A DNA stretch of 64,000 nucleotides from Microgenomates group bacterium (GTDB lineage Bacteria; Patescibacteriota; Microgenomatia; UBA10105; UBA927), in NCBI GenBank assembly GCA_049287205.1, contig JBAQFJ010000001.1, positions 191,041 to 255,040 on the forward strand, given 5' to 3'. Positions within the stretch are counted from its first letter, which is position 1. Every line of letters starts with the position of its first letter. Positions 24,329 through 35,945 of this stretch are shown here, one piece after another. Made by a program: the position numbers and the translations under genes. The notes below the pieces were generated by a model. It saw nothing but the letters and a program-made list of their open reading frames with translations, was not told the origin of the DNA and did no database searches.

Positions 24329-24679
24329 ATACGTATCTCCTTTTAAAAAATGAAGTGCTTGTTTTGTACTATTTGTGAAGCAACTCTCATGGATTGCTCT
24401 TTGTGCTTTTGTTGCCAAAAGATTTAAAACAATCGTTTTGGAAGAGAGTATTCCAAAGGGTTTCCGCTGATACTCTATAGAAGTATTCTATAGGTCCGAA
24501 TTTCGGCTATGCCGAACCCTTTTCCTCGTTATCCCACATAGTGGGACCATGCGCTCTTTTGTTTTTTTTGCTTCTCTTTGCTCCTTTCTTTGTCTATCAT
24601 ATGGTGTCTGTCTTGGACTGTCAAACTATTTGACAAATTGTAAAAAACAAGGAATAGTAGATAGTAAGGAGAAATTATT

Positions 24680-32322: not shown

Positions 32323-33426
32323 ATGTTCCTCACTGCCGTAACGTTTATTATTATTTTGAGCTTGCTCGTGATGATTCACGAGCTTGGGCATTATACTGTC
32401 GCACGTCTTTTCGGCGTTCATGTAGAAGAATTCGGATTTGGACTTCCTCCTCGGATTTGGGGTAAAAAAATCAAAGGCACGATCTATTCCATTAACTGGC
32501 TTCCTATCGGCGGATTTGTAAAACTTGCGGGGGAAGATGAAGAAGATGTTGACCGTGAAAAAAAGAAAATTACATCGGCGAGTGTGAGAAACACATACTT
32601 CTGGGCGAAGTCCCGCGGACAGAGAGCACTTATTTTGTGTGCGGGCGTGTTCATGAATTTTCTGCTTGCTGTTGGTATCACCACCTATCTGTTGACTCGT
32701 GGCGTGACGGAGCCAACTAAAATTGTGCATGTGGAATCTGTGACGGCAAACAGTCCCGCAGCACTCGGCGGACTCAAAGAGCAGGATATCATGAAGTCAA
32801 TCCAATACGCAGATGCTGGCGGTGTGCAGACAAAAAATCTTGAAACTCCGGATGAACTTATTTCTATTGTGAAAGCGCATGCAGGGACGACTGTGACGCT
32901 TTCAATTGTTCGAAATGCTGAACCGATTACTGTATCATTAATTCCGCGAACGAACCCGCCTGAGGGAGAAGGTCCTTTGGGGGTAGCAGTGTCAAATCTG
33001 GAAAAGCACAAATATCCGTTATCCAAAGCGCCGTTTATGGCGGTGAAAATTAATGTCGAACGTATGTGGACAATGCTTACTTCGCTTGGATCTGTCATTT
33101 CCAAATTGGTGATGGGAGACAAGCTCGCATCAGGGGAAATTTCAGGGCCGATCGGGATTGCACAGGTGACGGGCGAAGCAGTGAAATACGGATTTGATGC
33201 CGTCCTTGAATTTATGGCGATTCTTTCTTTAAATTTGGCACTCTTAAATATTCTTCCATTTCCAGCGCTTGACGGGGGACGACTCGCATTCGTCATTGCC
33301 GATAAATTCGGCAAAAAAGCTCGACCTGCCGTTGAACGCATGATTCACCAAATCGGCATGATTATTTTGATGGCTCTTATTCTTCTTGTAACGGTTAACG
33401 ACATCTTGAGGATCGTGAGGGGATAA
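32323..33426 (+). CDS. rseP: RIP (regulated intramembrane proteolysis) zinc metalloprotease, site-2 protease
   Basis: HELGH zinc-binding motif, a PDZ region, and LNLLPFPALDGGR are present. Confidence 0.85.
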   Translation: MFLTAVTFIIILSLLVMIHELGHYTVARLFGVHVEEFGFGLPPRIWGKKIKGTIYSINWLPIGGFVKLAGEDEEDVDREKKKITSASVRNTYFWAKSRGQRALILCAGVFMNFLLAVGITTYLLTRGVTEPTKIVHVESVTANSPAALGGLKEQDIMKSIQYADAGGVQTKNLETPDELISIVKAHAGTTVTLSIVRNAEPITVSLIPRTNPPEGEGPLGVAVSNLEKHKYPLSKAPFMAVKINVERMWTMLTSLGSVISKLVMGDKLASGEISGPIGIAQVTGEAVKYGFDAVLEFMAILSLNLALLNILPFPALDGGRLAFVIADKFGKKARPAVERMIHQIGMIILMALILLVTVNDILRIVRG

Positions 33427-33485
33427 AAATAAAATTACTTCTCTTGTTTTTCATATATTGTTGGTATATATTACTTATATACATG

Positions 33486-33617
33486 CATTCCGAGATCCGA
33501 CCGGAATAAGGCAGTTTCGCTAATAACGAAAACGGGTGAGCCCGTCATAGCAAAATAAGAAGTAAATAAGGTGGTACCACGAATTTACCGTTCGTCCTTA
33601 TAGGAGAACGGTTTTTT
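33486..33617 (+). promoter_or_regulatory. Putative T-box riboswitch leader (proline-type) with an intrinsic terminator
   Basis: The T-box-like sequence AAGGTGGTACCACG (33568-33581) is immediately followed by the terminator ccgttcgtcct, loop tat, aggagaacgg, then tttttt (33588-33617). Upstream hairpins include attccg-AGATCCGAC-cggaat, whose loop carries CCG followed by A. Confidence 0.55.
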
Positions 33618-33638
33618 ATTGGAAAAAAGGAGGATACC

Positions 33639-33974
33639 ATGTCAATGTATGATAATTTTCAGTCTCTCGACGTTCGAGTTGGAAAGATTGTGGGTGTTGA
33701 AGATTTTCCGGAAGCTCGAAAACCCGCATATAAACTGATTATTGATTTCGGTTTAGAAATTGGACAGAAACGGTCAAGTGTCCAAATCGTAAAGTACTAT
33801 AAAAAAGAAGAGCTTGTTGGTAAAAAAGTACTCGGAGTTGTAAATTTTCCTCCTCGTCAAATCGGTCCTTTTATTTCCGAATGCTTGACGTTGGGAGTGC
33901 CGGATGAAAGTCATGACTGCATCTTGATTGTTCCCGATAAAGTTAATGCAGTAATTGGTGGTAAACTATATTAA
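33639..33974 (+). CDS. tRNA-binding-domain protein (CsaA/Trbp111/Myf-like)
   Basis: LDVRVGKIVGVEDFPEARKPAYKLIIDFG...VLGVVNFPPRQIGPFISECLTLG is present. Strong SD aggagg. Confidence 0.8.
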   Translation: MSMYDNFQSLDVRVGKIVGVEDFPEARKPAYKLIIDFGLEIGQKRSSVQIVKYYKKEELVGKKVLGVVNFPPRQIGPFISECLTLGVPDESHDCILIVPDKVNAVIGGKLY

Positions 33975-33985
33975 AGGTACATATT

Positions 33986-35431
33986 ATGAAACAATTTGAT
34001 AAAAAAGACGCAAAGAAAAAACTCGATAATATTTCTGACTGGTATAACGATATTGTTCTCAAAGCAGAACTTGCAGATTACGGTCCTGTCAGGGGAACAA
34101 TGGTTATCCGGCCATACGGCTATGCAATTTGGGAGACGGTGCAGCATATTTTTGACAAGATGATCAAAGCTGCAGGGGTGGAAAATGCGTATTTTCCTAT
34201 GTTTATCCCTGAATCGCTCCTCAAAAAAGAAAAAGAACATGTGGAAGGATTTTCTCCGGAACTTGCAGTTGTTACTCATGCGGGCGGGGAAAAGCTTACA
34301 GAGCCGTTGATTGTGAGACCTACGTCGGAAACGATTATGTATTCCATGTACGCCAAATGGGTGAAAAGCTGGAGGGATTTGCCGCTGCTTCTCAATCAAT
34401 GGTGTAATATTGTGCGTTGGGAAAAACGAACCTATCTGTTTTTGCGTACGACGGAATTTTTGTGGCAGGAAGGGCATACCGCACATGCCAGCCATGAAGA
34501 GGGAATCGCATTTGCCTTGAAAGCACACGAATGGTACAGGCAAATTTTTGAAGACTATTTCGCGATGCCGGTTCTCTTGGGCAAGAAAAGCAAAACTGAA
34601 CAATTTGCTGGTGCTGCAACAACCTTTACGGTTGAAAGTTTGATGCCGGATGGAAAAGCTTTGCAAGCAGCAACATCTCATGATTTAGGACAGAATTTTT
34701 CTAAAGTGTTTGATATTCAATTTCAAGATAAAGAAAAGAAGTTAGAATACGCATGGCAAACTTCGTGGGGACTCTCGACACGGGCACTTGGTGGACTGTT
34801 TTTGACACATGGGGATGATGCAGGACTCATTCTTCCTCCAAAGGTTGCGCCTATCCAGCTAGTCATCGTACCGATCCTATCTTCAAAAATGACACCGAAA
34901 AAAGATCAGCCGCAGTATGTGAAACGGATTACTGACGCATTTATTTCTCAAGGAATTCGCGTCAAACTGGATGATACGGATGACAGCCCGGGACGGAAAT
35001 TCAACAAATGGGAAATGAAAGGCGTGCCGATGCGTATTGAGATTGGCGTGAAAGAAACAGATGATGAAACTGTAACACTTGTTTTCCGTGATACGGGAGA
35101 AAAGAAAACAATGCCGTGGAAAGAAGCAGTGATGCAGATTGATGATGAACTTGCAGCGATGCAGGTGCGACTTTTTGAAAAACAAAAAGCATTCTTAAAA
35201 AGCCGTACATACACTGTTTCATCATATGATGAATTCAAAAAGATTATGAGTACGACAAAAGGATTTATCAGCGCCTTGTGGTGTGAGGATGCCGCATGTG
35301 AAAAAGCAATCAAGGATGAAACAAAAGCAACAACTAGGTGTTTACCAATGGATGCGCATGAGGAAAAAGGTGTGTGTGTACATTGCGGAAAACCAAGTAC
35401 TCACCGTTGGATTTTCGGACAAAGTTATTGA
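33986..35431 (+). CDS. proS: Prolyl-tRNA synthetase (archaeal/eukaryote-like short form with a C-terminal zinc-binding domain)
   Basis: Class II motifs are present. The N-terminus is ISDWYNDIVLKAELADYGPVRGTMVIRPYGYAIWE. The C-terminus is CVHCGKPSTHRWIFGQSY. Length is 481 aa. Confidence 0.95.
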   Translation: MKQFDKKDAKKKLDNISDWYNDIVLKAELADYGPVRGTMVIRPYGYAIWETVQHIFDKMIKAAGVENAYFPMFIPESLLKKEKEHVEGFSPELAVVTHAGGEKLTEPLIVRPTSETIMYSMYAKWVKSWRDLPLLLNQWCNIVRWEKRTYLFLRTTEFLWQEGHTAHASHEEGIAFALKAHEWYRQIFEDYFAMPVLLGKKSKTEQFAGAATTFTVESLMPDGKALQAATSHDLGQNFSKVFDIQFQDKEKKLEYAWQTSWGLSTRALGGLFLTHGDDAGLILPPKVAPIQLVIVPILSSKMTPKKDQPQYVKRITDAFISQGIRVKLDDTDDSPGRKFNKWEMKGVPMRIEIGVKETDDETVTLVFRDTGEKKTMPWKEAVMQIDDELAAMQVRLFEKQKAFLKSRTYTVSSYDEFKKIMSTTKGFISALWCEDAACEKAIKDETKATTRCLPMDAHEEKGVCVHCGKPSTHRWIFGQSY

Positions 35432-35432
35432 T

Positions 35433-35888
35433 ATGGTAAAACACTACACGTCAACTGCAGTGTTGGTTACGGATACTAAACCTCGAAAAGTTCTTTTGGG
35501 ACTTCATCAAAAACTACAGATGTGGCTACCACCTGGTGGGCATCAGGAAGCAAATGAAAACCCCTTTGAGTGTTTGATACGGGAGGTTCTTGAGGAAACG
35601 GGATTTGATGTGACATCGTATTTGCCGAAATCACAGAAGTTGGATGAACGGGTCAATTCGCTTGCCATTCCTGATTATCTGTTTGAGGAACCGATTCCCG
35701 CGCGTGGTGACACGTCAGAACATATTCATATGGATTTTGTGTATGTTATTGTTGTTCCAGAATTTGAGCCGCACTTTTCTGAACGCGAATATGCCCAGAT
35801 GCGATGGTTTGGTGAGGGAGATGTTGAAGATCTTGCGTTATACCCAAATATCAAAGAAATTATTCTTCCTCGGTGTTTTTCCAAATAA
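35433..35888 (+). CDS. NUDIX hydrolase
   Basis: Nudix box PGGHQEANENPFECLIREVLEETGF is present. Confidence 0.8.
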   Translation: MVKHYTSTAVLVTDTKPRKVLLGLHQKLQMWLPPGGHQEANENPFECLIREVLEETGFDVTSYLPKSQKLDERVNSLAIPDYLFEEPIPARGDTSEHIHMDFVYVIVVPEFEPHFSEREYAQMRWFGEGDVEDLALYPNIKEIILPRCFSK

Positions 35889-35892
35889 AAAG

Positions 35893-35945
35893 CCCTTGAT
35901 AAGTTTTGATTGTGCCTTACCAAGGGCGGTGGTGTTTTGTGATAT
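35893..35945. terminator. Bidirectional hairpin terminator between convergent genes
   Basis: gcccttgataag, 12-nt loop, cttaccaagggc, with T-rich flanks. Confidence 0.5.

Follow-up and report, generated by a model that had tools for sequence, protein, structure and literature searches.

T-box riboswitches that control transcription generally need a long Stem I platform, and disabling this platform compromises their function; T-boxes with an intermediate or ultrashort Stem I are translational (PMC7583486). The paper describing TBDB takes the same view, and its model for a short Stem I was built from Actinobacteria only. The members of the ultrashort class carry their specifier in a terminal loop, act on translation and all regulate ileS (bioRxiv 10.1101/2023.02.28.530422). 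Here we describe a leader that departs from this picture, found in 64,000 nucleotides of a metagenome-assembled genome (MAG) of a Microgenomates group bacterium (GenBank assembly GCA_049287205.1, contig JBAQFJ010000001.1, positions 191,041 to 255,040 of the forward strand; hereafter the window, numbered from its first letter). The host belongs to the Candidate Phyla Radiation (CPR), as had been suspected in an initial annotation of this DNA made from the letters alone. We consider it highly probable that positions 33485-33617 of the + strand, upstream of a csaA-like gene and of proS, which encodes a prolyl-tRNA synthetase (ProRS), form a functional proline-specific T-box riboswitch working by transcription attenuation.

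Like the canonical class I T-boxes, this leader has a specifier followed by a purine, a Stem IIA/F-box element and a 14-nt T-box with a UGGN bulge; it also shares with them an antiterminator set against an intrinsic terminator, the gene of a cognate aminoacyl-tRNA synthetase as cargo and, in most of its relatives, a K-turn-like base of Stem I. Unlike them, it has no Stem I above the specifier, which is displayed by a 7-9-nt terminal loop, and it lacks the S-turn and, in the window, Stem III. Measured against all T-box classes described so far it is pared down, with a terminator retained as its expression platform. The terminal-loop specifier, the lack of an elbow contact and the presence of Stem II and a putative Stem IIA/B element beside Stem I are points of likeness with the ultrashort ileS T-boxes of Mycobacterium smegmatis, Mycobacterium tuberculosis and Nocardia farcinica. 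Reviews and later papers describe that ultrashort class as translational, dedicated to ileS and tRNA-Ile, actinobacterial, and equipped with an S-turn Stem II and a Stem III, whereas the class represented in the window is predicted to answer to proline (with one serine member), ends in a terminator, is found in Patescibacteria, has a Stem II that is a hairpin only and often does without Stem III. The initial annotation had likened the minimal Stem I to those known from Actinobacteria, a comparison that holds for the shortness of the stem and fails for the mode of control, which is here tied to a terminator. The glyQS T-boxes are also naturally reduced and transcriptional, but their reduction is the opposite one, as they dispense with Stem II as well as with Stem IIA/B and keep the long Stem I platform together with Stem III. 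The core mechanism is therefore a known one, while the combination of a terminal-loop Stem I with a terminator, and its distribution, appear to be undescribed within the literature that we searched; a full-text search of one library found no description of a T-box in the CPR, the Patescibacteria or candidate phyla. The leader measures about 116 nt between the foot of Stem I and the antiterminator's end, which to our knowledge places it among the smallest natural T-boxes, and structural studies and engineering could make use of it as a minimal scaffold supplied by nature.

A default Rfam scan of the whole window at gathering thresholds reported no T-box, returning only 16S rRNA, tRNA-Cys, tRNA-Ile and a glmS ribozyme. 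The T-box model RF00230 (gathering score 93 bits) was realigned with permissive filters to positions 33400-33680 (281 nt), where its positions 1-219 span 33479-33602 with 44.5 bits (E = 6.6e-9 for a search of 281 nt). In this alignment Stem II, Stem IIA and the antiterminator are well placed and the letters of the T-box core are perfect, while 21 nt take the place of about 90 Stem I positions and those of Stem III are deleted; the score falls short of 93 because these Stem I positions and Stem III are missing. The resemblance to the T-box consensus first noticed by eye, AAGGTGGTACCACG at 33568-33581 (+), holds within a model that is aligned end to end. Taken by itself the core motif is weak evidence: the window contains a single exact copy of the 13-mer AGGTGGTACCACG, and 0.16 chance matches per window are expected when up to one mismatch is allowed. 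None of 18 compact leaders of this kind reaches the RF00230 gathering threshold, which a canonical Tyr T-box of the same set does reach, so that routine annotation misses the class and T-box regulation in Patescibacteria has probably been under-counted. The elements of the leader and its genes are collected in Table 1.

Table 1. Elements of the putative proline T-box leader and the genes that follow it (window coordinates)
Feature	Position	Strand	Description and basis
Promoter-like site (putative)	-35 at 33444-33449; -10 at 33467-33472	+	TTGTTT, 17-nt spacer, TATATT; read from the sequence
Stem I domain	33485-33512	+	GC/GC pairs (33485-86 with 33511-12), 3-nt AAG bulge, 6-bp helix, terminal loop
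Stem I helix	33487-92 with 33502-07	+	AUUCCG/CGGAAU; fold
Stem I terminal loop	33493-33501	+	AGAUCCGAC
Specifier (predicted)	33497-33499	+	CCG, a proline codon, then purine A at 33500
Stem II	33515-33531	+	5-bp hairpin UUUCG/CGAAA, A-rich 7-nt loop CUAAUAA; Rfam alignment, covariation
Stem IIA	33533-33547	+	Hairpin CGGG-UGAG-CCCG, then UCA, giving F-box-like CCGUCA
A-rich linker in place of Stem III	33548-33566	+	AGCAAAAUAAGAAGUAAA, RAG-like AAG kept; unpaired in folds
Antiterminator	33567-33600	+	A1 UAAGG/CCUUA, T-box bulge, A2 ACGAA/UUCGU; fold -6.3 kcal/mol
T-box bulge	33572-33578	+	UGGUACC, 7 nt; UGGU is the predicted partner of the tRNA ACCA-3' end
Intrinsic terminator	33587-33617	+	ACCGUUC-G-UCCU/UAU/AGGA-GAACGGU and U6; 11 bp, one bulged G
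Shine-Dalgarno sequence	33627-33633	+	AAGGAGG, 5 nt upstream of ATG; unpaired in folds
csaA-like gene, first reading frame under predicted control	33639-33974	+	111 aa; PF01588; Trbp/EMAPII-type OB fold
proS, second reading frame under predicted control	33986-35431	+	481 aa; archaeal/eukaryote-like ProRS; PF00587, PF03129, PF09180

Relatives of the leader were sought with the 111-aa protein as anchor, which gave 80 loci from genomes, 80 from metagenomes and another 19 close relatives (loci are numbered L001 onwards). A covariance model was then made from the window and three similar leaders, with L090 left out on account of a Stem I that MAFFT had misaligned. The model finds 33 leaders among the first 161 sources, and a leader is present in all 13 of the sources that hold close relatives. 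In all, about 30 related leaders lie upstream of operons of the csaA-proS type in Patescibacteria genomes and in metagenomes.

The short hairpin with CCG and then A in its loop, which the initial annotation had pointed out upstream of the T-box, lies at 33487-33507. It is what is left of Stem I: the distal platform (interdigitated T-loops/AG bulge and distal loop), which in other T-boxes stacks on the tRNA elbow, is absent, leaving 6 bp and a 9-nt loop. Canonical T-boxes of CPR and Chloroflexi loci in this data set do possess the platform. This small helix is nevertheless conserved as a structure. When 20 homologues are aligned with MAFFT, without gaps, 84% of the alignment cells are paired (55% after shuffling), double-sided changes are found at all six pairs, and the covariation score is 0.751 against 0.206 for shuffled alignments (0/500 shuffles), with slid registers giving 0.08-0.31.

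Within the loop of the same 20 sequences, two C's are the sole invariant columns. The homologous loops read GAUCCGA, GAACCGA, GUACCGA, GAUCCUA, GUUCCUA, AUUCCGG, UUUCCCG, UAUCCCG, UUUCCUG, UACCCAG, UACCCCG, CUCCGAA and AAACCCAAA, and the codon keeps a constant distance to this loop's 3' side. Its third base may be G, U, C or A and the next base is a purine. A conserved CCN with a free third base and a following purine is the behaviour predicted of a T-box specifier for proline; what had been a guess from a single sequence is now carried by about 30 leaders with an invariant CC. The loop AGAUCCGAC also contains AUC at 33495-33497, and the leader might be taken for an isoleucine-specific ultrashort T-box resembling those of actinobacterial ileS, given that the only terminal-loop class described so far answers tRNA-Ile (bioRxiv 10.1101/2023.02.28.530422). 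Such a reading can be given almost no credence: AUC is not conserved (compare GAACCGA, GUACCGA, UUUCCCG and CUCCGAA, where CC alone persists), it is followed by C and not by a purine, and the cargo of these leaders is proS or proBAC, never ileS. The remaining frames of the window loop, which would specify Asp (GAU), Ser (UCC) or Arg (CGA), were rejected together with Ile (AUC), as none of them is conserved in the homologues.

Downstream of Stem I the leader is simplified further. Stem II lacks the S-turn internal loop, and the letters GAA...AGUA do not appear at the Stem II positions of the RF00230 alignment. The hairpin that remains shows double-sided changes at 5/5 pairs among 11 distinct close relatives, with variants that include UUUCG/CGAAA, CUCUG/CAGAG, CUCCG/CGGAG and CCCGC/GCGGG around a loop of consensus C-Y-A-A-N-A-A. 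The helix of Stem IIA is invariant among the close relatives, and CCGUCA is the F-box sequence quoted for N. farcinica (PMC7583486). In more distant relatives the Stem IIA loop can pair with a downstream segment, and this pairing covaries (CUGC/GCAG, CCUAC/GUAGG, UAGC/GCUA, GGAU/AUCC). Neither the folds nor the RF00230 alignment place a Stem III hairpin in 33548-33566; at this site an inserted hairpin is present in three of the 11 close relatives (L004, L177 and L179) and there is none in seven.

The conserved 14-nt T-box AAGGUGGUACCACG (33568-33581) yields a 7-nt UGGNACC bulge within the antiterminator helix, and across 23 leaders aligned with MAFFT 92.6% of the cells are paired (79% when shuffled), with double-sided changes at seven of ten pairs and a covariation score of 0.445 against 0.194 (0/500 shuffles). 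The UGGU bulge predicts that the discriminator base of tRNA-Pro is A73. The strong terminator adjoining the T-box, also seen at first reading, folds with -13.6 kcal/mol (z = -4.1) and is more stable than the antiterminator at -6.3 kcal/mol. Its 5' strand, 33587-33598, includes UUCGUCCU, from which helices A2 and A1 of the antiterminator draw their 3' strands (shared positions 33591-33598), and the two structures are mutually exclusive in the window. The initial annotation had named two findings that together would speak against a T-box, and they have come out differently: the Rfam score is indeed below threshold (44.5 against 93), but a competing antiterminator does exist, a canonical one that shares its strand with the terminator.

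A hairpin followed by a U-tract overlaps the antiterminator in 20 of 21 homologous leaders, L003 being the exception. Together with the precedent that every short-Stem-I T-box described so far is translational, the leader of L003, which has no terminator, could be cited for control by sequestration of the Shine-Dalgarno sequence, as in the actinobacterial short-Stem-I T-boxes. In the window, however, U6 comes directly after the competing helix, whose end is 14 nt away from the unpaired Shine-Dalgarno sequence, and with hairpin and U-tract recurring in nearly all relatives we regard translational control as highly improbable. Since the Shine-Dalgarno sequence lies outside both the terminator and the antiterminator, the switch is predicted to act on transcription. 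Transcription attenuation by such a leader would challenge the view that a short terminal-loop Stem I is a translational, ileS-only peculiarity of Actinobacteria.

Transcription likely starts near 33479, downstream of the promoter-like site listed in Table 1. The -35 hexamer of this site matches the consensus at only 3/6 positions. In two relatives, L161 (TTGCGC-17-TATAGT) and L169 (TTGCAC-17-TATTCT), the -10 hexamer lies 9-10 nt from the conserved AUGC that opens the leader, as it does in the window. A consensus scan for promoters and terminators listed neither the promoter, with its weak -35, nor the + strand terminator, with its bulged stem; both were found by sequence reading and folding.

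Given these elements, their covariation, the exclusive helices and their energies, the CCN codon with its purine and the proline-related cargo, we infer from the established T-box mechanism tRNA binding, sensing of tRNA charging and a transcriptional outcome along the following lines. The nascent leader, starting at about 33479, would display CCG and the adjoining purine in the short Stem I loop, backed by the Stem II hairpin and Stem IIA/B. The anticodon of uncharged tRNA-Pro would pair with CCG, and its free ACCA-3' end would pair with UGGU and thereby stabilise the weak antiterminator, allowing RNA polymerase to transcribe the csaA-like gene and proS. With charged tRNA-Pro, or with no tRNA, the stronger terminator would form and transcription would stop at the U-tract (33612-33617), which we predict to be the default state.

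Both of the genes that the initial annotation placed under the control of the leader were identified as proposed. The first encodes a CsaA-like tRNA-binding protein: in addition to PF01588, the 111-aa product scores 137.9 bits with TIGR02222 (CsaA; cut-off 119.65) and 147.5 bits with NF007495 (tRNA-binding protein), again passing the cut-off, and it is identical to NCBI entry MFZ2024834.1. Solved CsaA structures match it along its whole length, the best relatives being CsaA of Agrobacterium tumefaciens (2q2i, E = 2.3e-32) and of Bacillus subtilis (2nzh, E = 1.1e-30), and is related to Trbp111 (1pyb) at E = 6e-10. The second gene is proS, whose 481-aa product scores 576 bits with TIGR00408 (proS_fam_I).

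This association with proline genes recurs. The csaA-like gene is linked to proBAC or to a proS in about 45 of the 161 loci and in the majority of its closest relatives; the proS may be of archaeal (~480 aa) or bacterial (418 or 574 aa) type, and it may come before or after the csaA-like gene. Some loci have the csaA-like gene last in a proB-proA-proC operon, and in L005 the leader is followed by a gene similar to the ArgZ C-terminal domain and ornithine cyclodeaminase, then by proS and csaA. The cargo of the proline-type leaders is always proline-related, consisting of proS of either type, proBAC or the ornithine-cyclodeaminase-like gene, and never of ileS. In several relatives, L001 (~2111-2461), L002, L016 and L036, the csaA-like gene is separated from the terminator of the T-box by an open reading frame of 79-118 aa without a Pfam match, which in L001 and L002 opens with a GGUGAUCCUUCACC hairpin.

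Several observations weigh against a working proline T-box. The RF00230 score is less than half of the gathering score, and the window has no Stem II S-turn, the element by which known structures decode the anticodon duplex. For the IIB pseudoknot we found no convincing pairing in the window between the loop and downstream sequence, perhaps GC/GC only. The distance from Stem I to the U-tract is ~130 nt, and the platform is held to be essential on kinetic grounds (PMC7583486); the leader therefore poses the question of how a tRNA could be captured within ~130 nt of transcription. No tRNA-Pro gene, for which a CGG or UGG anticodon would be expected, is present in the window or in the first 160 of the fetched loci. 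Finally, part of the supporting covariation comes from an alignment that was fitted to the covariance model and leans towards it, namely that of the 11 distinct close relatives; in it 97.8% of the cells of Stem I, Stem II and A2 are paired, with double-sided changes at 14 pairs, but slid registers fall to 27-50% paired.

One way to account for such losses is that the leader is a decayed T-box, or a plain terminator or attenuator separating the M50 protease gene from csaA-proS, in which the response to tRNA has been lost. The sub-threshold Rfam score, the missing elbow platform, S-turn and Stem III, and the reduced genomes of the CPR would all be in keeping with decay. A relic would not be expected to behave as these leaders do, however, as Stem I, Stem II and A2 are upheld by compensatory changes in many lineages of Patescibacteria, the bulge of the T-box does not vary, and the codon still specifies proline while its third base drifts. 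Moreover, a constitutive terminator of -13.6 kcal/mol in front of the essential proS would presumably be harmful without antitermination. We therefore judge decay to be improbable and retain the functional proline T-box as the preferred interpretation. Going beyond the initial annotation, this interpretation comprises an absent Stem III, a reduced Stem II, a conserved Patescibacteria family and a control that is predicted to be terminator-based.

The wider survey gives an indication of how the compact leaders arose. In two Ktedonobacterales loci, L050 (1150-1440) and L074 (1170-1450), a canonical Pro T-box with a long Stem I, the distal loop GGUGCAAG and the specifier GAA-CCC-A precedes proS and then csaA. 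The presence of the long form in front of the same genes suggests that the regulon of Pro T-box, proS and csaA pre-dates the truncation, and that the CPR leaders are shortened derivatives. Canonical Tyr T-boxes with a long Stem I also occur in the CPR loci L078 (minus strand) and L097, so the loss of the long form is not general in the CPR lineage. The compact architecture, for its part, seems to reach beyond proline, with at least one serine example. The compact leader of L044 (4857-5060), also of the terminal-loop kind, has UGGC in the bulge, displays UCC in the loop and lies upstream of a gene for a SerA-like dehydrogenase fused to a SerB-like HAD domain. Bacterial tRNA-Ser carries G73, and the combination of UGGC, UCC and this cargo fits tRNA-Ser.

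The repeated company of the csaA-like gene suggests a role related to tRNA-Pro or ProRS for this subgroup of CsaA, and with a protein of the 3'-CCA-binding type found again and again beside proS or proBAC it points to a function that has gone unrecognised. In a full-text search of the literature, no account of a CsaA or Trbp with a link to proS or under T-box control came to light. One conceivable addition to the T-box mechanism is that the protein, once induced by the T-box, is itself a partner or modulator of the leader, holding the free 3'-CCA of uncharged tRNA-Pro. It might deliver tRNA-Pro to ProRS or to the leader, offsetting the missing platform and Stem III, or it might compete with the leader and so exert negative feedback. 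Its gene is the first after the leader, the linkage to proline genes extends to two unrelated types of ProRS and to both gene orders, and its homologue Trbp111 binds the very end of the tRNA that the T-box discriminator reads. Trbp111 contacts only the 3'-terminal CA, with an affinity of ~3 uM, and the authors of that study remark that UGGN sequences could thereby be kept from the tail (PMC11286949). These arguments are purely associative, however, and CsaA is more often called a secretion chaperone. Many of the sampled csaA homologues lie away from proline genes and T-boxes, and the Ktedonobacterales combine the same gene with a full-length T-box, which uncouples the protein from the truncation. 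We consider such a partnership unlikely, if worth stating: it would be the first case of a T-box whose output protein acts on the ligand end of the riboswitch itself, and would give CsaA a function linked to tRNA-Pro. A variant in which the CsaA-like protein binds the tRNA elbow in place of the missing Stem I platform was rejected, as the Trbp111 co-crystal shows binding solely to the 3'-terminal CA (PMC11286949).

Some further features of these loci were recorded. On the minus strand of L078 (~1340-1073) the Tyr T-box, with the specifier UAC and a terminator, is followed directly by a gene for tRNA-Tyr(GUA), an open reading frame of 330 aa and tyrS, in which arrangement the first item under control would be the T-box's own ligand tRNA. 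Ten of the source loci (L006, L008-L011, L027, L028, L044, L072 and L078) are labelled 'uncultured Gammaproteobacteria', 'Pseudomonadales' or 'Methanosarcinales archaeon'. These MAGs hold Patescibacteria-like csaA-proS operons with compact leaders, and the taxonomic labels of the TPA assemblies look unreliable.

In the window a NUDIX hydrolase gene (35433-35888, +) begins 2 nt beyond the stop codon of proS, with which it probably shares a transcript; a hairpin and a T-run follow at ~35893-35940. Syntenic relatives such as L161 have no NUDIX gene and continue straight to DHH-like and HIT genes. Elsewhere in the window, on the minus strand at 24381-24566, the glmS ribozyme scores 55.2 bits against a gathering score of 37 and has 48 nt inserted at a place to which the model gives 12 positions.

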